From assembly GCA_021813145.1 (NCBI GenBank), contig JAKALS010000001.1, positions 3,515-67,514 on the forward strand: DNA of 64,000 nt, given 5' to 3'. Positions 384-52,673 of the stretch are shown one piece after another. The notes under the pieces are model-generated. The model was not told the origin of the DNA. It worked only from the letters and a program-made list of their open reading frames with translations, and made no database searches. The stretch's first letter is position 1, and each line of letters begins with the position of its first letter. A program made the position numbers and the translations under genes. Origin of the DNA: a bacterium. GTDB lineage: Bacteria > Patescibacteriota > Microgenomatia > Levybacterales > UBA12049.

Positions 384-455
384 GGCGCGGTGGCGAAGTG
401 GTAACGCACCTGTCTGCAGAACAGGCATTCGTCGGTTCGAATCCGATCCGCGCCT
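384..455 (+). tRNA. tRNA-Cys (anticodon GCA)
   Basis: Hand-folded cloverleaf. Acceptor GGCGCGG pairs with CCGCGCC. Anticodon stem CCTGT/ACAGG with loop CTGCAGA gives GCA. T-loop TTCGAAT. U73 discriminator, as expected for tRNA-Cys. Length 72 nt. Confidence 0.8.
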
Positions 456-499
456 CATACCTCAGTTTTGATGAATTTTATCTCCTAAATTTTTTGAGT

Positions 500-865
500 A
501 TGGAAGAAGAATTAAAAACCGAAAAAGAAGAACGAAGGCGTGAGAACGCAGAATCCGTTTCAAGGCTTGAGGAGGAAATAAAAGCCGGAGAGTGGAAGAA
601 CCTGAAAAGGTTCGAGGCTTACAGGCAAAGAAGCAGGCAGGGAAGAATAATTGCCACCCATAAGGCACTTTCCAACAGAATTAAACAGCTCGAGTATCTT
701 TTTTATCAAATGGTAGCAAATAATCCCAAAAAGTCCCTAAAGCTTTTGACGGAGATTAAAAGGTTAAGATTTCTTTTGGATTATTTGCTTAATGCTTTAA
801 TTTGGGAAGAGCGGGGAGAGATAGAGGAGCACGACGTGCCCGAAGAACTCGAAGGAAGTTTTTAG
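500..865 (+). CDS. hypothetical charged, coiled-coil-like small protein
   Basis: ORF 398-865 trimmed to the first ATG downstream of tRNA-Cys (MEEELKTEKEERRRE...). Glu/Lys/Arg-rich. Stop codon abuts the tRNA-Ile. Confidence 0.35.
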   Translation: MEEELKTEKEERRRENAESVSRLEEEIKAGEWKNLKRFEAYRQRSRQGRIIATHKALSNRIKQLEYLFYQMVANNPKKSLKLLTEIKRLRFLLDYLLNALIWEERGEIEEHDVPEELEGSF

Positions 866-937
866 TGGGTCGTGATAGAATCGAACTATCTGCCTCTTCT
901 TTATCAGAGAAGCGTTCTACCAGTGAACTAACGACCC
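866..937 (-). tRNA. tRNA-Ile (anticodon GAU)
   Basis: Reverse complement folds as GGGTCGT..ACGACCC acceptor stem. D-stem GTTC/GAAC. Anticodon stem CTTCT/AGAAG with loop CTGATAA gives GAT. T-stem GATAG/CTATC with loop TTCGATT. Confidence 0.8.
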
Positions 938-2920: not shown

Positions 2921-5089
2921 CTAATCTCCGCTTTGTACGGAATACTCCCGTACAAAAAGATTATAGTCAAATTTATTTACAACCCCATTGTCATCAAGGT
3001 CAGAATTGATAATATAGCTCGGGTTACTGTTGCAGAGTTGGTGGTTATCTACATTGGCAACATCCGGGTCGTTAATGCAGCTTAAGAGAATATTATAGTC
3101 GGTTATATTTAAAACATTATCTCCGTTTACGTCTCCCGCAACAAGGTTAACCTGGGGCATCTGTGCGGTCTGTCCGGCAGCAATATTTTGTATTCCCGGA
3201 ATAAGCCTTCTTAAATGTCCGTCGGATTTTACTTTAATAGTATAATTTCCCGTTACAAAATTTCCTCCAAGGTCAACCGTTCCGGTAAATATACCTGTTC
3301 CCGCGTTGTAATTTATTGAGCCTAATTTATCTACCACCTGATTGTTATTACTGTCAAACACCCAAACCTCGACATTTCTGTTAGGATGAACAGGATTCTG
3401 ATTTGAAGAGCTCGGATTAGGATTTTCGTTGTCTCCTACAGATCCTATTGCATCCATTCCTACTTTAAGAGCCAGAAGTGTATCTCCCGGAGCAGGGGAA
3501 GCGGTAGGCGCCGGGCTTGAAGTAGGCGTAGGCGTTGGAACTTGGCAGGATCCGTTATAGCAGGCGACCCCGTTTGCGCAGGATGCATTGCATGACTGGT
3601 TATAAACATTTACCGGATTGCACTGGGAGCTGTTTACGTTATATGTGTTATAAACGCATGTCTCGGTTCCGCTTGCCGCTCCGCAGGCATTTACCTGGCT
3701 TGGCTGGCAAACCGCCTGGCTGCAATCCGCGATTCCGACTCCTTGAGAACTTCCATTACAATCCGGAGTGGGAGTCGGGCTGGGAGTGGGCGACGGACAG
3801 GTAGCCGCTGTAAATGTTCCCTGAGCGCTTTGTGCATTTGTTCCTAAAGTATAGACATACCATTGGAATTGGTGTCCTTGATTAAATCCGCACGAATATC
3901 CGGTTCCCGATTGGAGAGGGTCTGTGCATTGTGTAAAGTTATAGGTTGCTCCATTTGAGGGATTTTTAACGGTAGTGTCTCCTGCCTGTCTTGGAGAATA
4001 AAAACTGTTTGCCGTTCCGCTCCCATACTGGTAGGGCCCCCACCACTGATTTGCGGTTACATCATAGTATTTAATATAAACTCCGCTTCCGTCGGTAGGC
4101 CTTGTCCAAGTAAAGTATGTAGAGGACACATTGGCATCGTTTCCGGCTGTGTTTGCGGGATATCCTACTCCGCAATAAGTTTGCTGATTAAGGTTTGTTG
4201 CAACGGAATTGCTGGGAGAAGCAGTAGGGCTAGGAGACGGAGTTTGCCCAATAGGTGTGGATGTAGGAGCAGGAGTGCTTGCACAGGATGCTGTTGTAAA
4301 AGGCTGACCGTTTACCTGAACTCTTGCCCCGGATGTATTTACATATGTCATATACCAGGTCACTGTTTGTCCTTCTCTAAATCCGCAACTGTAGCCTGTT
4401 GTTAACCCCGAACATTGATTGAAATTAAATCCGTTATTTGTTGTCCCGGCTTTAAAAGGTGTTGTAATACTTGTTGACGAACCGGAAGTATAAGGACCAT
4501 AGGTATTATAGTCTGTAGTTATCTGATATTTGATTAAATATTGGGGATTAGAGGACGCGTCCGAAGGTTTCGTCCAGCTGAAAGTAGAAAATACAACACA
4601 TTGTCCGCCGCTTGTGCTACTCGAGCAGTTTCCGTTTGTGCAGTACTGCGCATAGCTTGTTCCGGTAGGGATCCCTTGAGGAGTAGTCGGATTGGGAGTC
4701 GGACTTGAAGGATTTATTACGGGTGTAGATACTGGTGTAGACACAGGCGTAGCGGTGGGGGCAGGTGTAGGTGTTTTATCTATATAGCACGAAACATCTC
4801 CCGCAGATCCTCCTACCGTTGCGGCACAATGGTAGTCAACAGGGCATTGATATTGATTATAAGCGGTTCCAGAACTGTTGCACTGTTGATAACCTCTCGG
4901 CAAACTGCCACCGCAAGTTTGGAAACCGGGCGTGCATGTAGAGGCATGTTGTTGGGTATTTTGCTGTTGTTGGGCTACCAAGACTGTTAGGGGGACAGCT
5001 GCTGCGATAATAAGAATGGCTAAAGCTGTAACCGTTCTTGTATGGCCAGGGGTCTTAAAAAACTCAACAAACCTTTTTAAAGGATTCAT
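2921..5089 (-). CDS. large secreted Cys-rich, Thr/Pro-linker protein with a C-terminal dockerin-like (type I) domain
   Basis: N-terminal signal anchor. Many Cys and PTPTPT linkers. C-terminus has DVNGDNVLNITDYNILL and DLDDNGVVNKFDYNLFV, i.e. duplicated DxNxDGxxxxxD calcium-binding loops. Confidence 0.6.
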   Translation of the reverse strand: MNPLKRFVEFFKTPGHTRTVTALAILIIAAAVPLTVLVAQQQQNTQQHASTCTPGFQTCGGSLPRGYQQCNSSGTAYNQYQCPVDYHCAATVGGSAGDVSCYIDKTPTPAPTATPVSTPVSTPVINPSSPTPNPTTPQGIPTGTSYAQYCTNGNCSSSTSGGQCVVFSTFSWTKPSDASSNPQYLIKYQITTDYNTYGPYTSGSSTSITTPFKAGTTNNGFNFNQCSGLTTGYSCGFREGQTVTWYMTYVNTSGARVQVNGQPFTTASCASTPAPTSTPIGQTPSPSPTASPSNSVATNLNQQTYCGVGYPANTAGNDANVSSTYFTWTRPTDGSGVYIKYYDVTANQWWGPYQYGSGTANSFYSPRQAGDTTVKNPSNGATYNFTQCTDPLQSGTGYSCGFNQGHQFQWYVYTLGTNAQSAQGTFTAATCPSPTPSPTPTPDCNGSSQGVGIADCSQAVCQPSQVNACGAASGTETCVYNTYNVNSSQCNPVNVYNQSCNASCANGVACYNGSCQVPTPTPTSSPAPTASPAPGDTLLALKVGMDAIGSVGDNENPNPSSSNQNPVHPNRNVEVWVFDSNNNQVVDKLGSINYNAGTGIFTGTVDLGGNFVTGNYTIKVKSDGHLRRLIPGIQNIAAGQTAQMPQVNLVAGDVNGDNVLNITDYNILLSCINDPDVANVDNHQLCNSNPSYIINSDLDDNGVVNKFDYNLFVREYSVQSGD

Positions 5090-25942: not shown

Positions 25943-26154
25943 ATTTTTTGAAGTGGGAAGTGAGATGTTCTTGAACTTGAACTAGGTACATGATCCGCAG
26001 CAGTTAGAGCAGGACCAGTTGCAATTGGCAATCCCGCAGCAGGAGGTAGCGCAAGCAATTAATCTTCCCTGGTTTAATTTATTAGGGGTGTAGAAAAGAT
26101 TAATCTTAAATCTCTTTTTTTGAATATCAGGTTTTTGATATTTGTTGTATTTTT

Positions 26155-26670
26155 TCATTGCTGCAAAATAAAAATATTTATGTCCAATGGTGCTTCATTT
26201 GGATCTATGGCGAGGTTCTCATTAAATTGGACCATTATTTTATCTCCGGGTTTTAAATCGCTTACTCCCACCTTTGAAGTTGTTCCATTTTTATCTTGAA
26301 GGTATACTGAGGTAGTTAATAAGTTTTTCCCCGTAATTGGGATGTTTGTCATATCTGCTTTATCGCCCTCCAGCACTATTAGTACTCCTTTATTGTCTTT
26401 TGACGGAATTATATTTTTTACTATTCCGTTAACATTTTGGGTAAAATATACATTTGCATTTTTATAAGACGGCCAGCTTTCAAGCATTTTTAGGGCAATA
26501 GGGTTAATTGCTAGGTTTGCTATGGGTATAGGGGTAGAGGTTGATGTCCCGATCGGGACCTGAGCTATTTTTTTAGGTTCTTCAAAAACAAAAAGAAATA
26601 CAACTTCCGAAAAAGCCGTAATAAGAAGAGCAATTATTATGGCAAGGAACACCTTGTTGAGCCTGGACAC
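26155..26670 (-). CDS. membrane-anchored protein, paralog B of the pair that flanks the RiPP operon
   Basis: MSRLNKVFLAIIIALLITAFSEVVFLFVF is nearly identical in pattern to the N-terminus of 30523-31044. Pro/Thr linker. Confidence 0.5.
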   Translation of the reverse strand: MSRLNKVFLAIIIALLITAFSEVVFLFVFEEPKKIAQVPIGTSTSTPIPIANLAINPIALKMLESWPSYKNANVYFTQNVNGIVKNIIPSKDNKGVLIVLEGDKADMTNIPITGKNLLTTSVYLQDKNGTTSKVGVSDLKPGDKIMVQFNENLAIDPNEAPLDINIFILQQ

Positions 26671-26722: not shown

Positions 26723-27487
26723 CTATTTCAAGGGGTTGCCAAAGGAAAAAGTGCTAATTACTGTTTCCTCAGTCCCGTCTACATCAAGTAATTTGTTTAG
26801 TGTGTCTTCTTTAAAACCCGCTACCTCGCAACACCCAAGATTTAGGGGAATGGAATTTAGGTAAAAATTTTGGCCGAGATGGCCTGTATCGATAAAAACA
26901 TGTCTATAACCGCGTTCTCCGTATTTAACCGTAGTTCTTGCGAAAACTCCGGTAACAATAATTATAAAAGCCGACCCTTTAACCCATTCTTGGTCAAAAT
27001 ATTTTCTGAAGTTTATCGTTTTATACGCGTAAATATGCTCAAGACTGTGAGTTCTTGGGTAATAATGATAAATTCCGTTAGGAAGTTCGGTATTAAAAGA
27101 TAAAAGGTAAATTTCAAGAGGGTATCTTCCTCCTCCCGAAGGATAAAATCTAAGAGGATACAAATTTTCATCAAGATTTTTTATTCCTGCGCTATGGTAC
27201 AGGAGAGAGGAAATTCTTTTAAGGTCAACCTTTTCTTTAGTGAATTCCCTTATGGACTCTCTTTTTAGAAGCGCTTTGGATAAGGCAACTTTAGGAAGTT
27301 CAATTTTGGGAAGCTTAATCTGTTCAAAACGGAAATAGCTTTTAAAATAAACTTTTTTCCACGTTTCGGGAGGTTTTTTTAAATCTTTTCTGAAGCGGAC
27401 ATTTTTTGATGCTTCGTAAAATTTTTGAAAAGGTGAGTTGTTGATGTTTAATAACTCCTCAATCTCGTTGTTATTTTTTATTTTCAT
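26723..27487 (-). CDS. SagB-type (McbC-like) FMN-dependent dehydrogenase of azoline-to-azole RiPP pathways
   Basis: RFYPSGGGRYPLEIY resembles the SagB hallmark PSAGGLYP. GYRHVFIDTGHLGQNFYL and CEVAGF are nitroreductase-fold segments. Confidence 0.65.
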   Translation of the reverse strand: MKIKNNNEIEELLNINNSPFQKFYEASKNVRFRKDLKKPPETWKKVYFKSYFRFEQIKLPKIELPKVALSKALLKRESIREFTKEKVDLKRISSLLYHSAGIKNLDENLYPLRFYPSGGGRYPLEIYLLSFNTELPNGIYHYYPRTHSLEHIYAYKTINFRKYFDQEWVKGSAFIIIVTGVFARTTVKYGERGYRHVFIDTGHLGQNFYLNSIPLNLGCCEVAGFKEDTLNKLLDVDGTEETVISTFSFGNPLK

Positions 27488-28767
27488 ATAAAAGGATGCG
27501 GAACTTGATTAAAATTCCCGGTTTCCACGTTAAAGAAATCCGCCACTTCTTTTATTCTTCCCGTCTTTAATTCTTTCTCTTTCTCATTCAAATAGAGAGG
27601 TTGAAGACGGGGAATAATGATTTTGAATACTTTATAGTCAATATCGGTAAAGTTATCTAAAGTTATGTCGGAATAATATGCATCCAGATTATTTTTCTTT
27701 AAAATTTTTTTCACTGTTTCCAGTTCTTTTACAGGGTTGTCTATGGGGGGTAGGGTTTTATATATCTTCGATTTTTCCGATTTTGTGAGAAAATCTAATT
27801 TGTCTTCCATTTGGGGCGTCATCCATAAAAGTGCCCTTTCAGCAATAGTTGGAACATGTTTTCTTATTTTTACATTTTTCTTTTTGTCAAATAGCTGCAA
27901 TTTCGCAAAGTATCTATTCATGAATGCCTCTTCCATGGCTCCCAGAATCGCAGTTTTTGTATCTAGGCTCGCTTTCATTCCCAGTGAAAGTTGGGGAAGA
28001 TTACCCGTTTCATCTAACAAAACGGTTAAGAATACAGGCACTTGAAGATTATTGGTAATATTAAAGATCAGGGGTTTTAGTCTGTATCTCTTGTAATAAT
28101 CGCCTAGGGATTTTATAGCGCTATCCTTAATGGAACTTATTTTTATCTTGGGGACCCTTATTTTATTAAGATATACCGTCATGAATGCATCTCTTTCTAT
28201 GACCTCATAAATTCCATTAAGAATAACTCTTGTGCTATCAAATCCTCCAGCTGCACCCGTACTTATACTTGAAGTCAGAGAAACTTCATTATCTTTTGGA
28301 AAGTTTAGATATAAAAGCTGGGCAGGAAGAAGTACCTGTTTATTGTCAAATAAATCGTGTCCCTTTATCCATCCGAACTTTGTTTCTTTTATTTTGTCCG
28401 TGTTTATATAAATTTGAGGATTTAAAGCATTAATTCTTTTCTTTTTCAGTTCATTATAGGTAGTATATGTAATCGATTTATAGCTATAGCAGCATTGGTT
28501 AAATCTTTCTGCAGCCTCGCTAAGACACTTCAATAGGGCGGTTTCTTTTGATGCATAAGATAATCCGTTTGCCCCGATTTTATATGCGTTGAGCTTATAT
28601 TCAGATTTCGGAAAAAAGGGATTACTTGAGTTATTAAGCATAACCGAATAGTAATTTAGCTTAGGTTCGTCATAAAAGTGGTTAGAGTTATTTGCTACTT
28701 TCTTAATAATTTTTTTTCCGTTAAGTTCTTTATAGAGTATTTTGATTAATTCCAAGTTATTTTCCAT
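27484..28767 (-). CDS. YcaO-domain cyclodehydratase (azoline-forming type)
   Basis: CLSEAAERFN and GIYEVIERDAF match the YcaO ATP/Mg-binding E-x-x-E-R motifs. SISTGAAGGFD. C-terminal ...VPHPFI is a proline-rich tail like the PxPxP of TOMM YcaOs. Confidence 0.7.
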   Translation of the reverse strand: MENNLELIKILYKELNGKKIIKKVANNSNHFYDEPKLNYYSVMLNNSSNPFFPKSEYKLNAYKIGANGLSYASKETALLKCLSEAAERFNQCCYSYKSITYTTYNELKKKRINALNPQIYINTDKIKETKFGWIKGHDLFDNKQVLLPAQLLYLNFPKDNEVSLTSSISTGAAGGFDSTRVILNGIYEVIERDAFMTVYLNKIRVPKIKISSIKDSAIKSLGDYYKRYRLKPLIFNITNNLQVPVFLTVLLDETGNLPQLSLGMKASLDTKTAILGAMEEAFMNRYFAKLQLFDKKKNVKIRKHVPTIAERALLWMTPQMEDKLDFLTKSEKSKIYKTLPPIDNPVKELETVKKILKKNNLDAYYSDITLDNFTDIDYKVFKIIIPRLQPLYLNEKEKELKTGRIKEVADFFNVETGNFNQVPHPFI

Positions 28768-29483
28768 TATTTTATGTAGTAAAAATTATCAAAATTTTTA
28801 ACAAATTCCATTAAATATTTTATTTGGCTGTTGTAGTTTTTAGAGTCTCCGCTGATTTTTTTCGCAAGGTTTTCGAGGATTTGTTCTTTATCTTCAATTT
28901 TACCTTCGGAAATATTTTTACTTTTTAAGGGGATATAGATATTTCCGATTGGGAATTTCCCGTGGTTTTTTTCAATAAAGGGATTTTCGATAAAAGGTGA
29001 TTGGTAAAAATAATATCTACCGTTTTCCTTTTTTATAATCGATATGTCATCGGTTAAAAATTTATTATGTATATTTTCTATGTCCTTAAAGAAGATTTCT
29101 GCTTTACCGTTTTTTTCTATTGCTATTGATTTTAGGAATAGCGTTTCATGTTTGAGAGATAATTTAAAGAGTATAAAATTAATTACCGTTTGGAATTGAA
29201 GAGGGTTTATGGAGTAGTAGGCGTTCATGCTATTTACTCCGGTTTCTTCAAAAAAACCCAAATAATATTTTTTACCTTTTCCATTGTAAAGTAAGTCCAT
29301 TCTCTTTTTTTCTATAAAATTTATCGTGTAGTCCGGTTTGTTGTTTGGATTTTTTATGATAAATCCTTTAAAAAAATCAATAATTTCATTTTTAATAGTA
29401 TCTCTTACAAAAGGCTTTTCGCTTTTGTTAAAAACTGTTTTAATATTAAATCCGCCGATTTTAAGAGTTAGTGAATTATTCAT
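28767..29483 (-). CDS. HPr-kinase-like family protein lacking a Walker A motif (paralog of 29489-30286)
   Basis: Collinear with 29489-30286 and 48517-49332 (shared NFILF/NFVLL region and C-terminal QIKYLMEF..FDNFY). No GxxGxGKST P-loop. Confidence 0.5.
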   Translation of the reverse strand: MNNSLTLKIGGFNIKTVFNKSEKPFVRDTIKNEIIDFFKGFIIKNPNNKPDYTINFIEKKRMDLLYNGKGKKYYLGFFEETGVNSMNAYYSINPLQFQTVINFILFKLSLKHETLFLKSIAIEKNGKAEIFFKDIENIHNKFLTDDISIIKKENGRYYFYQSPFIENPFIEKNHGKFPIGNIYIPLKSKNISEGKIEDKEQILENLAKKISGDSKNYNSQIKYLMEFVKNFDNFYYIK

Positions 29484-29488
29484 ATTCC

Positions 29489-30286
29489 CTAAAGAGTATT
29501 TTCCAATAATTTTATAAGGCCCTTGCTGCTTTTTGAGAAATAGAGAAAATAAAAGTTATCGAATTCGCTTATAAACTCCATAAGATATTTTATTTGAGTA
29601 GAGTAGTGCTCGTCTCTTGTAAAGATTTGTTTTGATATTAATTTTAGAACATACTCCTTGTTTGTGATTTTTTTGATTTCAAAATGCTTAGATTTTTTTA
29701 AAAAATACACTGAATTTACGGTTGTCCCACTGGAGGTCTTGGTGATCAGGTTTTTTTCCAGGATAGGCGATTGATACAAGTTATATTTGCTTGCCTCTTT
29801 TCTAATTAATGTTATGTCATCGGATAATTTGAAATACCTGTTTTTTAAAAGGTTTGCTGTTGTTGACTTTCCCGCTCCGCTTTTGCCAAGAAAAATATAT
29901 GCCTTGTTATTAATCTTTACTGCGGAAGAATGCAAAAACAAAATTTTATTTTTTTCACTTAATCTTAAAAGTACAAAATTTACCAGCGATTGAAATTGAA
30001 AAATATTTATAAGGTAATGGGTTTTGATTCTATTTTTTTTTATTATTTCGAAAAAAGCCAGATAATATTTCGATTTATTTTTTTCGCTTAATAACTCAAG
30101 TTTTTCTTCTTCCGTTATTTCGATAATAAAGTCGGGGCTTTTAGGTTTATTCTCTATAAAGTTAGCAAAGAAATCTTCAATATTATTTTTTAAAATTTTT
30201 TTTGCAACATTTAATTCAGTCTTTTTAAATATAATCTTTATGGAAAATCCGCCCACTAAAATATTTATAATTTCGGTATTTTTCAT
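29489..30286 (-). CDS. HPr kinase/phosphorylase C-terminal-domain-like putative peptide kinase
   Basis: FLGKSGAGKSTTANLLKNRYFKLSDD matches the HprK P-loop region [25 protein letters not shown]. Confidence 0.55.
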   Translation of the reverse strand: MKNTEIINILVGGFSIKIIFKKTELNVAKKILKNNIEDFFANFIENKPKSPDFIIEITEEEKLELLSEKNKSKYYLAFFEIIKKNRIKTHYLINIFQFQSLVNFVLLRLSEKNKILFLHSSAVKINNKAYIFLGKSGAGKSTTANLLKNRYFKLSDDITLIRKEASKYNLYQSPILEKNLITKTSSGTTVNSVYFLKKSKHFEIKKITNKEYVLKLISKQIFTRDEHYSTQIKYLMEFISEFDNFYFLYFSKSSKGLIKLLENTL

Positions 30287-30335: not shown

Positions 30336-30512
30336 TTATGTTGCTTTTATAGAGCTGCTTCCGCAACCGCAAGAACTCGCTGCATATACTTTTCCTACTG
30401 CTAGTCCATTAGCAGAATCTAGAAAACGTTTATTAAAAAAGAACATAGAAAAACCTTTTACGGTTCTCCTTCTTATCTTAGGCTTAATATAACGATTTTC
30501 AACGGTCTTCAT
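30336..30512 (-). CDS. candidate RiPP precursor peptide, 58 aa (not in the supplied ORF track)
   Basis: Minus-strand ATG at 30512 translates to MKTVENRYIKPKIRRRTVKGFSMFFFNKRFLDSANGLAVGKVYAASSCGCGSSSIKAT, with stop at 30336-30338. The Cys/Ser/Gly-rich C-terminal core is typical of azoline-type substrates. Sits immediately upstream of the HprK-like/YcaO/SagB genes on the same strand. An alternative start is the second Met (36-aa product). Confidence 0.5.
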   Translation of the reverse strand: MKTVENRYIKPKIRRRTVKGFSMFFFNKRFLDSANGLAVGKVYAASSCGCGSSSIKAT

Positions 30513-30522
30513 AATAGCTATT

Positions 30523-31044
30523 TTACTTTAAAAATCTTTGTATTTCTACGCTATCCGGCATTTTGCCATCGGATGTGTGCATATCGTAAGTAGCAGTTAT
30601 TATAATACTATTTCCGGATGAAAGATCACTAAGTTTTATGGGTGTTTGAACTCCGTTTGTCAGATCATAAACTTTTACGCTTTGAGAAAGCGGGGGCATA
30701 ATGTCATATTGAGTAACTTCTTTTCCTTTTACTCCCTCTAGATGAATTGTGAGTACATTATTGTTTGCCTGGGTAGGAAGATCTACCGAAGAGACTATGC
30801 CTGTTACATTTTGAGTAAAGGTGTAAGTTGAGTTGGTCCAATAGTGGGCAGTTTTTAGGTAATCTATCATGTAATTCGTTACGGCAGGGTTTTGAATAGG
30901 GGTAGGTGTAGGAGCTGTTAAGGCCTGAGGGGGAGTGGGAACAGTCTGGGTGGGTTTATAAACAAACAGAAATACCACCTCTGCAAGAGCAGTAAAAAGA
31001 AGAGCTATAATCACAGCTAAAAATATTTTATTCAGCTTTGACAT
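30523..31044 (-). CDS. membrane-anchored protein, paralog A of the pair that flanks the RiPP operon
   Basis: MSKLNKIFLAVIIALLFTALAEVVFLFVY. Pro/Thr linker. 10 nt upstream of the precursor ORF. Confidence 0.5.
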   Translation of the reverse strand: MSKLNKIFLAVIIALLFTALAEVVFLFVYKPTQTVPTPPQALTAPTPTPIQNPAVTNYMIDYLKTAHYWTNSTYTFTQNVTGIVSSVDLPTQANNNVLTIHLEGVKGKEVTQYDIMPPLSQSVKVYDLTNGVQTPIKLSDLSSGNSIIITATYDMHTSDGKMPDSVEIQRFLK

Positions 31045-43643: not shown

Positions 43644-44483
43644 TCATTTAATAGCGCTAATTACGAAATCGTTAAGATTTAGTCCATTATTCGTAGACAA
43701 GTTTAATTTATCGCCTAATTGTACAAGTTGATCACCGCCAAAGATAAGTTGGTTATTTTTTTCAAGTAATTTCATTTTTGCAATTATTACTATATCTTGA
43801 GTTGTGTCGGTTGACCCTTCGGATACCTGGCTTGTAAAATTGTTAACTACGGCGAATACATTTTGTTCCAGTTTTTTATCGGTTACTTGAAATACCGATT
43901 GGTTTCCGTTGTAATAACTGTCTCCGATTTTAATACTGTCGTAAAGATAGGGAGCGCTTTTTCTATATGCAGCGGGATCAACCAAGTAAATTGTTTTTTC
44001 GACATATTTGTCTTGGGGAGGCGTTACGCCTAAATACAGGATTGTTCCAATAACATGGGAAGTTGGAAAACTTAGTGTAATAGGAGAGCCTACCGCAATA
44101 GGCGATCTTTGGAAGGAATAGCTTCCTGTAGTTTTATCGTAACCTGCCTGAAGTTTTAAGTTTAAAAAAATATCAAACTGATTATCGGCAAGAGAAGACG
44201 GGTAATATGTTACATTCAGTATTTCTGCTTCGGGTTGGCCTAAAATACCCGTTTGTATTTCTCCGTTATGCAACGAATCTACAATCCAAATATCGGGTCT
44301 TGAGTAATAGGATTCTGGATAATTTATCTCTACTTTTGCATAGATGTAATTTGTTTTGGACAAGAAATTTTTATATAACCCGACCAGTAAAGTTAAAACA
44401 ATTATTACAATAAAAGCCAAAAGTAAATAGTTTTTTTTTACAAAAACTATAATTTCCTTCGTTTGTTTATTTCTTAATCTCAT
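43644..44483 (-). CDS. hypothetical signal-anchored protein
   Basis: N-terminal transmembrane segment LLLAFIVIIVLTLLVGLY followed by a beta-rich domain. Confidence 0.4.
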   Translation of the reverse strand: MRLRNKQTKEIIVFVKKNYLLLAFIVIIVLTLLVGLYKNFLSKTNYIYAKVEINYPESYYSRPDIWIVDSLHNGEIQTGILGQPEAEILNVTYYPSSLADNQFDIFLNLKLQAGYDKTTGSYSFQRSPIAVGSPITLSFPTSHVIGTILYLGVTPPQDKYVEKTIYLVDPAAYRKSAPYLYDSIKIGDSYYNGNQSVFQVTDKKLEQNVFAVVNNFTSQVSEGSTDTTQDIVIIAKMKLLEKNNQLIFGGDQLVQLGDKLNLSTNNGLNLNDFVISAIK

Positions 44484-48516: not shown

Positions 48517-49332
48517 ATGGAAAAAATATATCTTAATATCTGCGGTTTTAATATTCTTTTAAAAGTTCATTACACCGATCAGCCCTATCATCTTGATAAT
48601 TTTGTCGGAATGGTTAAAAAAAACTATTCGGGTTTTATTAAAAGGGGAAAGGGAAAGGTTGATTTTACGGTTCATGTGGATTACACGGGCTCCGTCCTTT
48701 TAAAAATAGATAAAAAAAAGAACTCCGAAGTGGAGTATTTTGATATGAGGTCCTCCTATCTGGATATCCCCAAAAGGACACTTTTTTTTAATAATCCTCC
48801 CGGGGGATTAGATTTCGAATTTGGGCTTTCCATAATCTTAAATAAATATCTTATTCCCAACAGTAACGGTATGGCTCTTCACGGTTCGGCGGTTTCGTAT
48901 AAAAATAAAGCATTTATTTTTGAAGGAAGAAACGGGGCCGGGAAATCAACAACAGCCCAGATGCTCAACGGTCTTTGCAATATTTCTGCGGACGATTCGA
49001 TAGTTATAAGAAAGATAAAAGGAAGATTTTACCTGTTCCAGACAATAATCCACGATAAAAACTATAATTTTAAAAAGGGATGGCAGTCCTATACGGTAGA
49101 CAGGATCTTTTTCATAAAGAAGGCAAAAGAATACAAAATTCAAAAGATAGAAAACAAAAATATGATCTTAAACAAGATCTTAAAACAGATTTTTACATAT
49201 CCCGATATGATTAAAAGACAGTTTCCTTTACTGGTGGAGTTTGCAAACACAAAAGATTTTTATTATCTTTATGTAAAGAAAGACGAGAAAGAATTCAAAA
49301 AGTTTTTTAAAAAAGAAATTTTAAAGATATGA
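48517..49332 (+). CDS. HPr-kinase-like putative peptide kinase (third paralog)
   Basis: ALHGSAVSYKNKAFIFEGRNGAGKSTTAQMLNGLCNISADD is collinear with the P-loop region of 29489-30286. Confidence 0.55.
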   Translation: MEKIYLNICGFNILLKVHYTDQPYHLDNFVGMVKKNYSGFIKRGKGKVDFTVHVDYTGSVLLKIDKKKNSEVEYFDMRSSYLDIPKRTLFFNNPPGGLDFEFGLSIILNKYLIPNSNGMALHGSAVSYKNKAFIFEGRNGAGKSTTAQMLNGLCNISADDSIVIRKIKGRFYLFQTIIHDKNYNFKKGWQSYTVDRIFFIKKAKEYKIQKIENKNMILNKILKQIFTYPDMIKRQFPLLVEFANTKDFYYLYVKKDEKEFKKFFKKEILKI

Positions 49333-49589
49333 AATACAAAGTAAATAAAGGTTTTATAATTCAAAAAGTAGGGGATAGTTCGACGATTTTTGACGGGGAA
49401 AAATCGGAACTTTATACTTTTAATAAAACTGCTACCTTGATTTTTGAAAAAATAAAGTCAGGCTGGGAAAGCGCAAAAATAATTGAATATCTTTCAAAAT
49501 TTTATTCGATTAAAAAAGAAGAGGCGGAAAAAGATTTTAACGAATTTGTATCCGAACTTATAAAATCAAAGATTCTTTCTAAAAAATAA
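49329..49589 (+). CDS. PqqD-family RiPP recognition element (RRE) protein
   Basis: 86 aa. FNKTATLIFEKIKSGWESAKIIEYLSKFYSIKKEEAEKDFNEFVSELIKSKIL follows the PqqD pattern LNETAAxIxELxDG..t..eIi..L...y.v..e....Dv..fl..L...gli. ATGA-coupled to the upstream kinase-like gene. Confidence 0.65.
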   Translation: MKYKVNKGFIIQKVGDSSTIFDGEKSELYTFNKTATLIFEKIKSGWESAKIIEYLSKFYSIKKEEAEKDFNEFVSELIKSKILSKK

Positions 49590-50801
49590 TTTCTCCCGGA
49601 TTTTCTTTTCAACAACCCAATATACGGAATAGACGACTTCTTTATTTGTAAATACAAAAGCCTTTCTGTAAAAAGGGAGAGGGGAGAGGAAAAAAATTGT
49701 CTTGAACCTTTTTACGCCTCCCGTTACTCTTTCGTCCTGGTTAAGTATGTCTATTCCCCTAATCATTTTATTCATATATCCGTTTTTTTCCGGCTTAATT
49801 TTGTTTAAAACGGAAGAGGGAACGGGAGTCTTGTAATACTTTTTAAGAAGAAAAAGAGCGGGGTAAATAAAATTTTCAAGTTTATATTCTTTTATGATCC
49901 TTAGAGCGTTTTCTCCGATTTTATCTTTTTTAATTACGGTGTTTATAAATTCATAACGGTAAGTTCCTTCAAAATTATGGTGAAAAAGGTGAAGGCAAAG
50001 GTAAACGGCAAGATTATCTTTTGAAAGAACGGGAAAATTCTCTCCGTTTACCGTTATTTGTCTTTTGCTATTTAAAAAGTCCGAAGTAAGAGAGTCTACG
50101 AGTTTTTGCGGATAAAGGCTATTCAACTCGCCAAGCTGTGTCATTAAAAAAACAATTTCGAAATGTACGTCAAAAACCACGGCAAATCCGTTTACGTATT
50201 TTATAAAAGTTATTTCCGATTCCTTGTTTTTTAACTGCTTATGCTTTTTGGAAAGGCTGTCTTCGGTTTGCTCATATCCGAATTCTTTTAAAATCCTTTT
50301 AACTTTATTAAAATCGTTTCTTTTAACAAGTATGTCGCAGTCGGCGTAAATTCTCCTGGGGTGGGTCTTTTCGAAATATAAATGAAGGGGAAGGCCCTTT
50401 AGAAAAACAACGTCTATGCCTTTTTTCTCCAGGATTTTTTTAATTTTTATTATTTCCAAAAAATAGAGGCTGGACTGCATAAGATAGAGACTTTCGGGGC
50501 TGAATATTTCTTTACCCCTTTTAACATTTTCCACAATCCCGAGTATGTTTTTTGCCGAAACTCTTTTATCGGAAGTATGGTTGTTATCGCCTTTGGTTAT
50601 AACATAGTCTTTGCCTTTATAAATTACTCTGTGGGTAAAATAAGTATTGCCGTTTTTTACCGTTATTATGTCGTTGGTTTTAATTCTTTTAAAGGGGATT
50701 TTTTTAAGGTATAAAATATCCCCGTCCAAAAGAAGGGGATACATGCTGTTGCCGAAAGTCTTAAGCCCTCTTTTTAAGAAATCTCTATTATTTATATCCA
50801 T
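49566..50801 (-). CDS. fusion protein: N-terminal S24/S26 (signal-peptidase-I / LexA-like) serine peptidase domain plus C-terminal uncharacterised nucleotidyltransferase (NTP_transf_5-like) domain
   Basis: GNSMYPLLLDGDIL (Ser box), FTHRVIYKGKDYVITKGDNNHTSDKR (Lys/GDN boxes). VVFLKGLPLHLYF...RRIYADCDILV in the C-terminal domain. Confidence 0.5.
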   Translation of the reverse strand: MDINNRDFLKRGLKTFGNSMYPLLLDGDILYLKKIPFKRIKTNDIITVKNGNTYFTHRVIYKGKDYVITKGDNNHTSDKRVSAKNILGIVENVKRGKEIFSPESLYLMQSSLYFLEIIKIKKILEKKGIDVVFLKGLPLHLYFEKTHPRRIYADCDILVKRNDFNKVKRILKEFGYEQTEDSLSKKHKQLKNKESEITFIKYVNGFAVVFDVHFEIVFLMTQLGELNSLYPQKLVDSLTSDFLNSKRQITVNGENFPVLSKDNLAVYLCLHLFHHNFEGTYRYEFINTVIKKDKIGENALRIIKEYKLENFIYPALFLLKKYYKTPVPSSVLNKIKPEKNGYMNKMIRGIDILNQDERVTGGVKRFKTIFFLSPLPFYRKAFVFTNKEVVYSVYWVVEKKIREKLFFRKNL

Positions 50802-50852: not shown

Positions 50853-52673
50853 ATGGCAGGCCTTATTAAAAATGAAAGGATAGGTAAAATCCTTGGGACG
50901 GCAAAAACCTCAAAACGCCTTCTTTTGTTTTTGTGGAAAATTGACAAGCCACTTTTTTTGACAAGTTTTATCGTTGCCGTTGTTCCCGCGTTTATTCCTT
51001 TTGCGAATGCGTACATTTACAAATTGATAATCGATTTTATAGTTTCTTCTTTCGGGAAGCCTAACGTAAGTCTTTCTTTCCTTTTTATTTTAATGGGTTT
51101 TCGTCTCGGCACCTTTGTTTTGCAGGAAGTATTTTTTTCTTTGCAAAGTTATGTAGATCTTTTGGTATGGACAAAACTTCCGGTTGAGCTTTACAGAGTT
51201 GTACTTTTAAAACTTTCGGAACTGAATTTACAGTATTTTGAGGACAGCAACTTTAAAGACATGCTCCAACGCGTAAAAGAAAGCTATACATGGAGGCCTC
51301 TTAATATGATCTCTGCCCTTTTTTATACCATGCAAAGCCTTACAGGCCTTATTCTTGCAGTTTTAATAATTGCCACCCTAAATATTTTCCTCGGACTTTT
51401 TATTCTTTTGATAGCCGTTCCCGTATTCTTTAACCAGACAAAGTATGCAAAAACAATATGGGGTCTATGGGAAGAGCATTCTCCGTACAGAAAAAAATTC
51501 TGGTATATATCCGACCTTATCCAAAACGGACAGAGCGCAAAAGAGATGAAGATTTTCCAGACAGCAAAAAATTTTATAGGCGAACTGGACAAAATACAAA
51601 AAAAGTTTGTGAGCCAAAATTCCAAAGTCGGGAAAAGAAGATTTTTAACGACAATGATTTTTGACATAGGCGGAATAGTTGTTTATTTTGCCATAGAACT
51701 TTTTATAGTCCTTTTAACTGTAGCCGGAAAGATTACCCTCGGAAGCCTTACTTACTTTACTTTTGTAGTGGCAAACTTCCAGCAGGCTGTTAACGGACTA
51801 TTCAGGAATATGTCCCAGGTCTATACACAAACTCTTTTTGTCGAGGATATATTTAGGGTCCTTGACGCAAAGCCCACTATTACAACTTCTAAAAGAGCCG
51901 TAAAGCAGGATATACATAAAGCTCCTTTAATAGAATTTAAAAATGTCAATTTTTCCTATCCCGGATCCAAAAAAGCCGTGCTAAAGAATTTTTCCCTTAA
52001 GATTAATCCCGGAGAAAAAGTGGCATTTGTAGGCGAAAACGGCGCCGGTAAGACAACAATAGTAAAACTTTTGGCACGTTTTTATGATACAGATTCGGGG
52101 GAAATACTTATAAACGGCATCAATATAAAAGATATAGACCTTGTTTCCTGGTACAGGACTTTGGGGGTTATTTTTCAGGATTTTATAAAGTACGAATATA
52201 CCCTGCGGGAAAATATTTATTTCGGAAAGACTTTTGAAAAGGAAGACATAAAAGAAATCAGAAAGGCGGCGGGAAAGTCCGGTGCCGATAAGGTGGCAAA
52301 CAGTCTTGAAAAAGGATACGAACAGATTCTGGGAAAAACATTCGAAGGCGGCGCGGACCTATCGGTGGGAGAGTGGCAAAAAGTGGCACTTGCAAGGGCT
52401 TTTTTCCGTAACGCCCCCGTCCTTATTCTGGACGAGCCTACTTCTGCCATTGATCCGAAGTCCGAAAACGAGATATTCGAAAAAGTGGAGGATTTGGGTA
52501 AAAACAAGACAGTCCTTATTATTTCCCACAGGTTTTCAACAGTTAGAAACGCGGATACGATTTATGTAATAGAAAAAGGAAGAATAAAAGAGGCGGGAAA
52601 CCACGAAAAGTTAATGAAACAAAAAGGGATTTACGAAAAGCTTTTTACGATACAGGCCAAAAGGTACAGATAA
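50853..52673 (+). CDS. ABC transporter, fused permease/ATPase (type I exporter, MsbA-like) with an atypical signature motif
   Basis: Six N-terminal transmembrane segments. Walker A GENGAGKTT. Signature LSVGEWQK instead of LSGGQ. Walker B ILDEPTSAID. Confidence 0.8.
   Translation: MAGLIKNERIGKILGTAKTSKRLLLFLWKIDKPLFLTSFIVAVVPAFIPFANAYIYKLIIDFIVSSFGKPNVSLSFLFILMGFRLGTFVLQEVFFSLQSYVDLLVWTKLPVELYRVVLLKLSELNLQYFEDSNFKDMLQRVKESYTWRPLNMISALFYTMQSLTGLILAVLIIATLNIFLGLFILLIAVPVFFNQTKYAKTIWGLWEEHSPYRKKFWYISDLIQNGQSAKEMKIFQTAKNFIGELDKIQKKFVSQNSKVGKRRFLTTMIFDIGGIVVYFAIELFIVLLTVAGKITLGSLTYFTFVVANFQQAVNGLFRNMSQVYTQTLFVEDIFRVLDAKPTITTSKRAVKQDIHKAPLIEFKNVNFSYPGSKKAVLKNFSLKINPGEKVAFVGENGAGKTTIVKLLARFYDTDSGEILINGINIKDIDLVSWYRTLGVIFQDFIKYEYTLRENIYFGKTFEKEDIKEIRKAAGKSGADKVANSLEKGYEQILGKTFEGGADLSVGEWQKVALARAFFRNAPVLILDEPTSAIDPKSENEIFEKVEDLGKNKTVLIISHRFSTVRNADTIYVIEKGRIKEAGNHEKLMKQKGIYEKLFTIQAKRYR

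Follow-up and report, generated by a model that had tools for sequence, protein, structure and literature searches.

An HPr-kinase-like protein and its P-loop-less tandem duplicate in a candidate azole-peptide gene cluster of a Microgenomatia bacterium

HPr kinases/phosphorylases (HprK/P) are hexameric enzymes that phosphorylate Ser46 of HPr. As tailoring enzymes of RiPPs, HprK-like kinases are, to my knowledge, known from lasso-peptide clusters only, and I know of no pseudokinase paralog described in those systems. By its family definition, ScmC is paired with the PqqD-like ScmD in a RiPP cassette. The canonical partners of YcaO enzymes have degenerate ATP-enzyme folds. Among the lasso systems, the HprK homologs PadeK (paeninodin) and PsmK (pseudomycoidin) phosphorylate the precursors, and a PsmK D158A/D159A double mutant was the mutant control of the kinase complementation test; hexoses are added to the phosphorylated peptide only with PsmN, of a nucleotidyltransferase family, the phosphate being the site of the sugars according to a review, and in lasso clusters the nucleotidyltransferase is at times fused to the leader protease (PMC6993621, PMC8498205). 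According to the description by Sharrar et al. (2020, PMC7298704), Microgenomates and Parcubacteria have YcaO beside a nitroreductase and a Ser/Cys-rich precursor, in 110 clusters from 93 genomes. The cluster listing in that description names YcaO, nitroreductase and peptidase, with no mention there of a ScmC-like protein, PqqD, NTP_transf_5 or a tandem pair such as the one presented here. A literature search yielded no paper joining HPr kinase with YcaO, and its matches to "ScmC" were unrelated acronyms only.

The azole-peptide cluster and its relatives

The window analyzed here is a stretch of 64,000 nucleotides. It carries three genes of interest, called A, B and C below. A (29489..30286, minus strand) encodes a ScmC-family protein of the HprK P-loop superfamily with 265 residues, predicted to be active. 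B (28767..29483, minus strand, 238 aa) is a tandem duplicate of A and a predicted pseudokinase, separated from A by a 5-nt gap. C (48517..49332, plus strand, 271 aa) is a ScmC-family paralog with an intact site. The stop codon of B overlaps by 1 nt (TAATG) with the start codon of a SagD-type YcaO cyclodehydratase gene (27484..28767, minus strand, 427 aa; PF02624, 158 bits; TIGR03604, 198 bits), which in turn overlaps by 4 nt with the gene of a SagB-type FMN dehydrogenase, the enzyme class turning azolines into azoles (26723..27487, minus strand, 254 aa; TIGR03605, 146 bits against a cut-off of 78; PF00881). The ORF list also has two precursor peptides of 58 residues each on the minus strand, one at 30336..30512 with the core ...VYAASSCGCGSSSIKAT (precursor 1) and one at 25982..26158 with the core ...IACATSCCGIANCNWSCSNCCGSCT (precursor 2). 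Immediately upstream of precursor 1 lies a 173-aa protein with an N-terminal membrane anchor (30523..31044, minus strand), to which no Pfam or NCBIfam family was matched; its membrane-anchored paralog of 171 aa (26155..26670, minus strand) lies upstream of precursor 2. Small anchored proteins like the former also adjoin precursors in the related loci L003, L005 and L007.

The RiPP setting assumed in the first-pass annotation is borne out by this operon of YcaO, SagB and Cys/Ser-rich precursors, the three components that mark a TOMM or linear azole peptide cluster. Among ORFs of at least 120 aa between 19 and 53 kb, no E1-like (C) or Ocin-ThiF-like (F) partner of YcaO was found with Pfam and NCBIfam, though a gene for one may lie in another part of the genome. 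Neither a lasso cyclase (Asn-synthetase-like) nor a B2 protease was found in the scanned ORFs of the same region, which has a B1-like PqqD only. No radical-SAM gene was found in the cluster, no carbon-catabolite-regulation genes were seen in the context of A and B, and Rfam and tRNA scans gave nothing relevant to the cluster.

The stop codon of C overlaps with the start codon of a gene for a PqqD-family RiPP recognition element (RRE; 49329..49589, plus strand, 86 aa; PF05402, 34.8 bits against a cut-off of 23.4), whose best NCBIfam matches are lasso-type PqqD models, under their cut-offs. Then comes a convergent gene for a protein in which NTP_transf_5 is fused to a signal-peptidase-I-like (S24/S26) domain (49566..50801, minus strand, 411 aa; PF14907, 94 bits; PF00717, 25 bits; TIGR02228, 53 bits against a cut-off of 51.85), and nearby is an ABC exporter with fused permease and ATPase (50853..52673, plus strand, 606 aa; PF00005, 113 bits). 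In a neighbor-joining (NJ) tree, C groups only with P0024, whose locus (L030) has the order Bac_transf-ScmC-PqqD-NTP_transf_5, as around C. C is an anciently diverged but intact ScmC-family paralog. It belongs to a kinase/PqqD/nucleotidyltransferase/ABC module that related genomes have in the cluster of the YcaO genes. A 255-aa protein in the slot of C in L005, between Bac_transf and PqqD, was considered as a hidden family member and rejected (hhalign probability 0.5%).

Across the related loci (L001, L003-L007 and L028-L034), ScmC, PqqD, NTP_transf_5, YcaO, SagB and a precursor rich in Cys and Ser co-occur repeatedly. Orthologs of the S24/S26-NTP_transf_5 fusion were found in L003-L007, L030, L031, L033 and L034, and a homolog of the ABC exporter adjoins ScmC-YcaO in L028. 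The precursors, including both of the window, form a family with a conserved leader in nine loci. All nine cores have an internal Ser or Thr, and their C-terminal residues are Ser (three), Thr (two), Ala (two), Gln (one) and Gly (one). The L033 core is devoid of Cys. In summary, the conserved set comprises a leader-bearing precursor, YcaO, SagB, one ScmC-like protein, PqqD, the signal-peptidase/NTP_transf_5 fusion and the ABC exporter, and the system is typical of low-GC uncultivated CPR/Microgenomates-like bacteria.

Homology, fold and nucleotide site of A, B and C

The ORF list agrees with the first-pass annotation as to the three ORFs, the GKSGAGKST motif in A and the third P-loop member at 48517-49332. 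That annotation had also taken A and B for true paralogs. In pairwise BLASTP with composition adjustment, A and B are 39% identical across 239 aa (E 2e-54), A and C are 44% identical in the C-terminal 133 aa (E 1e-27), and B matches C with an E value of 7e-8; the NFVLL/NFILF and QIKYLMEF..FDNFY blocks are aligned collinearly between A and B, as had been noticed. A, B and C are all rich in Lys, Ile, Asn and Phe, and the likeness of A and B might have been low-complexity matching of Lys, Asn and Ile instead of homology. Smith-Waterman scores were compared with those of 300 composition-preserving shuffles. The A-B pair scored 454, whereas no shuffle exceeded 81, and the z values were 48.7 for A-B, 29.2 for A-C and 12.5 for B-C, so that the Lys/Ile/Asn-rich composition is no explanation of the A-B match. 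Since one family profile also matches both A and B, and their models agree in fold and secondary-structure order, the probability of a spurious match is negligible, and the paralogy is upheld.

The AF2 models of A (pLDDT 92.2) and B (pLDDT 91.9) are both predicted to take the PEPCK/HPr-kinase-like P-loop fold. In Foldseek, the model of A matched PEPCK (E 2e-7) and HprK/P (E 1.5e-5 to 3e-4), and that of B matched PEPCK (E 1e-6) and 1KNX (E 6e-4). The secondary-structure elements of B follow the order of A, except that helix 140-147 and the final helix are missing. Within the HPr-kinase/PEPCK-like P-loop superfamily, A, B and C fall into the ScmC branch. Precomputed PF27840 (ScmC) matches are present for A and 29 of 30 A homologs; the precomputed look-up gave no match for B, yet B scores 250 bits against the family profile built in this study.

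A lies under the HprK cut-offs (PF07475, 17.9 against 33.3 bits; TIGR00679, 20.4 against 240 bits), as does C (PF07475, 13.2 against 33.3 bits), and B has no HprK match. For the ScmC equivalog TIGR04249 (cut-off 125), A scores 26.8 and C 22.2 bits; for the HprK-related kinase A model TIGR04352 (cut-off 200), the scores are 27.8 and 15.2 bits, while a true member in L024 has 246 bits.

The sequences of solved HprK/P proteins were aligned with A by way of the lasso-type kinase of L018. As the first-pass annotation had proposed, the motif of A aligns with the P-loop and the following DD of HprK/P: a His, 15 residues, GxSGxGKS, about 16 residues and DD, spaced as in 1KO7 and 1JB1. The set is complete in A, namely His119 (29930-29932), the Walker A motif GKSGAGKST from G134 to T142 (29861-29887) and D156-D157 (29816-29821). 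It is also complete in C, with H122, GRNGAGKST from G137 to T145 (48925-48951) and D159-D160 (48991-48996). Is this site common to the family? The ScmC-like family comprises 673 clusters (50% identity, E <= 1e-30), and of 175 family sequences, 172 have His119, 173 have Lys140 and 172 have D157. B and its ortholog P0032 are the sole ones without the His and GK[ST]. The survey inspected the best 150 representatives and members without a P-loop score lower; thus, more pseudokinase copies may exist. A contig scan with the P-loop pattern G[KEQ]SGAGKST gave, among the matches listed, mostly distant HprK-like genes and a close relative only in L007.

Loss of the P-loop in B and the origin of the pair

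Alignment with A bears out that B is without a P-loop. The 26-residue segment of A from F132 to D157 (FLGKSGAGKSTTANLLKNRYFKLSDD) corresponds to 16 residues in B (FFKDIENIHNKFLTDD), a 10-residue deletion that takes out the Walker A loop and the following helix and keeps the DD (D145-D146, 29046-29051). A 9-residue linker (residues 133-141, 29061-29087) stands where A has the loop and helix. At the position of the family-conserved His119, B has a Lys (Lys118, 29130-29132), and its C-terminal helix is missing. B retains the DD, the YQSPxxE block, a K and a Y. Seven positions that are among the most conserved outside the nucleotide site are kept.

In the NJ tree, A and B with their respective orthologs form the clade ((A,P0002),(B,P0032)), to which P0003 is the outgroup; the P0003 locus has ScmC->YcaO->SagB without B. 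The tree and the locus show a lineage-specific tandem duplication in the immediate ancestor of the two known genomes. B is accordingly a very recent duplicate limited to one lineage, and not general to the system. P0032 is the sole other ortholog of B known. It was considered whether B arose to serve precursor 2, but this was rejected, since L001 has B without the second pair of precursor and transmembrane protein.

A duplicate that has lost the catalytic His and the entire P-loop, and that is found in two genomes only, may be a functionless leftover in decay. The linker seems unconstrained (KDIENIHNK in B, NETPNKKNN in P0032), and dN of B (0.214) exceeds that of A (0.127), B being about 1.7 times faster. 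However, both genomes have an intact B ORF of exactly 238 aa, even though synonymous divergence is saturated (dS about 1.6). The dN/dS ratios from the two genomes, which are approximate as dS is saturated at about 1.5-1.6, were 0.13 for B and 0.08 for each of A, YcaO and SagB, placing B within the range of its neighbors. The seven conserved positions, the confidently predicted fold and the translational coupling with YcaO were also kept. Decay is thus quite improbable. Because of the dN/dS ratio of about 0.13, the ortholog of equal length and the stop/start overlap with YcaO, B appears to be a living gene under purifying selection. The first-pass description of an active and a degenerate member is a fair one, to which it may be added that A and C keep the nucleotide-site residues, and that B has lost them and yet seems to be selected.

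Possible roles in azole-peptide maturation

A shares with HprK/P (1KO7, 1KKL, 1KNX) the fold and the His/Walker A/DD spacing; of that motif, B keeps the DD only. A differs from HprK/P in that its N-terminal domain and overall model are nearer to ATP-PEPCK (query-normalized TM about 0.5 versus about 0.3), and in that it sits in a RiPP operon without a sign of carbon-catabolite regulation. A and its relatives carry PF27840 like ScmC of the SynChlorMet system, but here without a radical-SAM/SPASM maturase. The triad of the HPr-rel-A system (TIGR04352, the PqqD_rel_X family TIGR04353 and a nucleotidyltransferase), ordered PqqD->HprK_rel_A->NTP_transf_5 in L024, resembles C/PqqD/NTP_transf_5 of the window. 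The HPr-rel-A system belongs to proteobacteria, and neither YcaO nor SagB is seen in it. A and B have YcaO as their neighbor in place of PqqD and a nucleotidyltransferase. The clusters of PadeK and PsmK have the following in common with the present one: the His...GxSGxGKS...DD core, a PqqD-type RRE, a nucleotidyltransferase of the PsmN kind (PF14907 here), an ABC exporter and accompanying sulfotransferase genes. The nucleotidyltransferase is fused to a leader protease in some lasso clusters and to a signal-peptidase-like domain here. The present system has no lasso cyclase or B2 protease, and azole formation by YcaO/SagB is its core chemistry. Its kinase-like proteins are about 265 aa long, in contrast to about 320 aa in the lasso kinases, and the similarity is remote outside the P-loop region. 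Lasso-kinase substrates have a conserved C-terminal Ser. Here the terminal residue differs among the precursors and is Gln in the ortholog of precursor 1, which weakens a C-terminal Ser/Thr as the candidate target of phosphorylation.

From these likenesses, I propose, at a probability of roughly 0.55, that A is a peptide kinase acting with the pseudokinase partner B in azole-peptide maturation, the NTP_transf_5 enzyme decorating the phosphate. By analogy, A, and C guided by PqqD, would be ATP-dependent peptide Ser/Thr kinases tailoring the precursor as PadeK and PsmK do; both the kinase activity and the phospho-acceptor of ScmC-family proteins are inferred in this way. The NTP_transf_5 enzyme would then decorate the phosphate, as PsmN does. 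B would have no canonical ATP binding and would most likely be a non-catalytic subunit that helps to bind the substrate or a partner and takes no part in the chemistry. A hetero-oligomer of B and A is proposed because HprK/P enzymes are oligomers. The leader-binding role that the first-pass annotation had suggested for B is less necessary, because a dedicated PqqD/RRE (49329-49589) belongs to the system.

Could the ScmC-like proteins instead be the missing partner of YcaO? They would then replace the E1-like or Ocin-ThiF-like protein, presenting the peptide to YcaO and activating it, without phosphorylating side chains, and B would be an ATP-independent version of this docking role. No canonical partner was found in the region scanned above, and ScmC->YcaO->SagB with overlapping codons, seen in L028, L029 and the window, resembles the classic C-D-B operons. 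Of about 11 distinct loci, 8 have YcaO together with the ScmC-like gene, B without its P-loop is under apparent selection immediately upstream of YcaO, and the canonical partners are themselves degenerate. On the other hand, the near-invariant Walker A, His and DD of the family argue for catalysis. On contigs such as those of L033, with its Cys-free core, and L031, a family member accompanies PqqD and NTP_transf_5 although no YcaO is seen, the ScmC gene and YcaO are on opposite strands in several loci, and a leader-binding domain is already available in PqqD, whose gene immediately precedes YcaO in L005. Such a partner role is thus unlikely. Somewhat more doubtful still is its extension, in which ScmC-like proteins would be a third, unrecognized class of YcaO partners in CPR, B would exemplify ATP-independent docking, and A, B and YcaO would form a heteromeric cyclodehydratase-kinase complex.

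In the preferred reading, that of a kinase with a pseudokinase partner, the kinase/PqqD/nucleotidyltransferase module of the lasso clusters is, in uncultivated bacteria with small genomes, consistently joined to azole formation by YcaO and SagB. The combination therefore predicts phosphorylated, perhaps glycosylated, linear azole peptides. I have not seen phosphorylated linear azole peptides described as a product type. The A/B pair may be regarded as a natural experiment, in which a fresh pseudokinase appears to be kept by selection between a predicted active copy and YcaO. B could reveal what the ScmC-like family does besides phosphotransfer, and the pair bears on substrate recognition by YcaO enzymes that have no canonical partner.

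Paralogy and fold of the HprK-like proteins

ORF calling revealed a tightly packed operon on the minus strand of the window, at 25.98-31.04 kb. It comprises genes for a membrane-anchored protein of 173 aa (30523-31044), a 58-aa precursor peptide ending in ...VYAASSCGCGSSSIKAT (30336-30512), the ScmC-like P-loop protein A of 265 aa (29489-30286), its neighbor B of 238 aa (28767-29483), a YcaO protein (27484-28767), a SagB-type dehydrogenase (26723-27487), a second membrane-anchored protein (26155-26670), and a second, Cys-rich 58-aa peptide (25982-26158). The end of A and the start of B are 5 nt apart, and the TAA of B shares one base with the ATG of YcaO.

The first-pass annotation had described A and B as an HprK-like pair in which B has lost the Walker A P-loop, with C (48517-49332, plus strand) as a third paralog. 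The positions given there proved correct, and the paralogy was confirmed by BLASTP with compositional adjustment: A is 39% identical to B end to end (E 2e-54) and 44% identical to C over the catalytic half (E 1e-27), and B matches C with an E value of 7e-8. Against 300 composition-preserving shuffles, the z-scores were 48.7 (A-B), 29.2 (A-C), and 12.5 (B-C). Thus, spurious low-complexity (Lys/Asn/Ile-rich) matching, the weakness that the annotation itself had named, is ruled out as the source of the similarity.

In local Pfam and NCBIfam scans, A scored below the curated cut-offs (HprK_rel_A 27.8 bits, ScmC 26.8, HprK 20.4, and Hpr_kinase_C 17.9) and by these belongs to none of the HprK/P, HprK_rel_A, and ScmC equivalog families; B matched nothing in the same scans. 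Precomputed annotation of a large protein collection assigns A and nearly all of its homologs to the recent Pfam family PF27840 'ScmC'. Protein A was modelled with AlphaFold2 (24-sequence alignment; pLDDT 92.2, pTM 0.87), and Foldseek was used to search the PDB with the model. The top matches were ATP-dependent PEP carboxykinases (E about 2e-7, query-normalised TM about 0.5), followed by the HprK/P structures 1KNX, 1KO7, 1KKL, 2QMH, and 3TQF (E 1.5e-5 to 3e-4). The HprK/P catalytic domain is a member of the PEPCK-like P-loop fold, and this is the predicted fold of A. The motif segment FLHSSAVKINNKAYIFLGKSGAGKSTTANLLKNRYFKLSDD of A, with GKSGAGKST at residues 134-142, is collinear with 1KO7; the His lies 15 residues before the first Walker A Gly in both proteins, and the Lys-to-DD spacing is 16 or 17. 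Thus, the term 'HprK-like' is correct at the superfamily level.

Origin and maintenance of the degenerate copy B

In the family alignment, His119, G134, G139, K140, T142, D156, D157, Q172, and K198 are nearly invariant. Among 175 sequences (the top 150 representatives together with earlier matches), His119 is present in 172, K140 in 173, and D157 in 172, and both the His and GK[ST] are missing only from B and from P0032, its one known ortholog. The loss of the P-loop from one member of the pair is therefore borne out. The 26 residues F132-D157 of A correspond to 16 residues in both B and P0032, and this identical shortening dates one 10-residue deletion to their common ancestor. The linker in its place has drifted without constraint since then, to KDIENIHNK in B and to NETPNKKNN in P0032. 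B still has D145-D146, YQSPFIE, the conserved Lys, and the C-terminal FDNFY block. Its AlphaFold2 model is as confident as that of A (pLDDT 91.9), keeps the order of elements except for two helices, that of Walker A and the last one, and still finds PEPCK and HprK.

A neighbor-joining tree built without the P-loop columns gave ((A,P0002),(B,P0032)) and placed P0003 as the closest outgroup to this clade. On the P0003 contig, the codons of ScmC→YcaO→SagB overlap, and B is absent. This topology and locus indicate that B arose recently by tandem duplication and was inserted between A and YcaO. The deepest split sets C apart from A and B, and C pairs only with P0024. A sister contig (L001) has the identical order of membrane protein, precursor, A', B', YcaO, and SagB. 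The dN/dS values between the window and this contig were 0.08 for each of A, YcaO, and SagB and 0.13 for both B and the precursor, and are approximate because dS is saturated (about 1.3-1.8). Nonsynonymous evolution of B is about 1.7 times faster than that of A, but B is clearly under constraint.

The C module, related loci, and precursors

The stop codon of C overlaps with the start codon of a PqqD-family gene (86 aa, PF05402 34.8 bits). Convergent to the latter is a gene for a 411-aa signal-peptidase-I-like/NTP_transf_5 fusion (49566-50801, minus strand; TIGR02228 53 bits against a cut-off of 51.85, PF14907 94 bits), and a fused ABC exporter gene comes next. The genes of both sub-clusters occur together in contigs of relatives. 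L003 (a Candidatus Levybacteria MAG), L005/L006, and L007 have ScmC, PqqD, S24-NTP_transf_5, YcaO, a precursor, and small anchored proteins; L003 and L005/L006 have SagB as well, and the L007 contig stops before any SagB. L004, L031, and L033 have the ScmC/PqqD/NTP_transf_5 part, L028, L032, and L034 have ScmC, YcaO, and SagB, and L030, which encodes P0024, has Bac_transf-ScmC-PqqD-NTP_transf_5 as at C. YcaO/nitroreductase LAP clusters have already been reported in CPR genomes, and the available part of that report does not mention ScmC-like, PqqD, or NTP_transf_5 proteins (PMC7298704).

A precursor profile search found nine loci: the window, with two members, and eight related or sister loci with a single member each. 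These peptides have a conserved leader (M..KxYxKPxIxxKKIKxNxF...FxDS) followed by a variable core with much Cys, Ser, and Gly. At the presumed leader-core junction, the precursors, both window peptides included, have an AxA/AxS-like motif in common (VYAAS|S, LMASS|C, VYASS|H, LMAAG|C, IACA|T). The signal-peptidase-I-like domain at the N-terminus of the NTP_transf_5 protein may act as leader peptidase. Small proteins of 166-202 aa, each with a membrane anchor at the N-terminus, a Pro/Thr-rich linker, and a beta-rich domain at the C-terminus, are in every case encoded next to a precursor gene (window 30523-31044 and 26155-26670, both on the minus strand; L003 6674-7174, 10413-11021, and 11128-11721; L005 7073-7594; L007 4987-6044). 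They matched no Pfam or NCBIfam family, and might serve in immunity, as receptors, or in processing.

The RiPP genes form both ends of a low-GC glycan/envelope island (24000-53000; GC about 30-35% vs about 41% in the flanks) encoding a carbamoyltransferase, two PMT_2, GDSL, DUF6056, GH10, two GT4, two Wzy_C, GT2, a DegT aminotransferase, and Bac_transf. Wzy_C-domain proteins include O-oligosaccharyltransferases. In L003, L005, L007, L030, L031, and L032, homologs of Bac_transf, Wzy_C, and an unannotated 279-aa protein (43644-44483) directly adjoin the RiPP genes, which suggests that the peptide system is functionally tied to lipid-linked glycan assembly. Genes of the PF00884 sulfatase/phosphodiesterase superfamily and arylsulfotransferase genes recur in related clusters (L003 5221-6585 and 12268-13557; L004 6135-7361; L032 5726-7174; L034 190-1671) and are absent from the window cluster. 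The sole Rfam/ARAGORN matches in the window were tRNA-Cys(GCA) (384-456, plus strand) and tRNA-Ile(GAT) (865-937, minus strand).

Possible roles of A, B, and C

The closest characterised relatives in function are HprK homologs encoded in lasso-peptide clusters of Firmicutes. Among them are PadeK and PsmK, which phosphorylate the C-terminal Ser of the precursor, and a PsmK D158A/D159A double mutant was the mutant control in a complementation test for phosphorylated products (PMC6993621, PMC8498205). Once phosphorylated, the peptide can receive one or two hexoses, an addition that needs the uncharacterised nucleotidyltransferase PsmN; according to a review, the hexoses are attached to the phosphate. 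Some lasso clusters have a nucleotidyltransferase fused to the leader protease, and sulfotransferase genes co-occur in kinase-containing clusters (PMC6993621, PMC8498205). Likewise, the CPR system has an HprK-like protein, PqqD, a peptidase-domain-fused NTP_transf_5, and an ABC exporter, and L003 and L004 also carry arylsulfotransferase genes. In the sphingomonad HPr-rel-A system, the order is likewise PqqD→kinase→NTP_transf_5. In an Allosphingosinicella MAG (L024 9435-11559), overlapping genes encode an 89-aa PqqD-like protein, a true HprK_rel_A kinase (246 bits), and NTP_transf_5 (166 bits), corresponding to the C/PqqD/NTP_transf_5 triad of the window.

On the basis of this common module, A and C may be read as leader-guided peptide Ser/Thr kinases that would tailor the azole peptide, with B as a putative pseudokinase subunit. 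B keeps the protein face uninvolved in nucleotide binding, which would suit a role in which it either forms a hetero-oligomer with A or binds the peptide or YcaO. I give this joint reading a probability of roughly 0.55. The main rival, that the ScmC-like proteins are the missing YcaO partner, draws on the tight ScmC→YcaO coupling and on the lack of a canonical partner (no E1-like or Ocin-ThiF-like protein was detected by Pfam/NCBIfam among ORFs of at least 120 aa at 19-53 kb). It is unlikely, however, given that the catalytic site is conserved near-universally in the family and that members occur on contigs without visible YcaO. Among these is L033, a 7.7-kb contig with ScmC, PqqD, and NTP_transf_5 and without YcaO and SagB, whose precursor (3121-3339, minus strand) has the conserved leader and a Cys-free core, ...VYASSHGGDYDDGRVDYSQQDNNNNSNNNVNGDVSIS. 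The kinase/PqqD/nucleotidyltransferase module may be independent of azole formation.

The A/B finding is real, and its first-pass reading as an active/degenerate pair is reasonable and partly supported. It does not overturn current understanding and will interest specialists for the mass of the product and the role of B. The locus is an HprK-like RiPP tailoring module joined to YcaO/SagB chemistry, within which a lineage-specific pseudokinase duplicate is selectively maintained.
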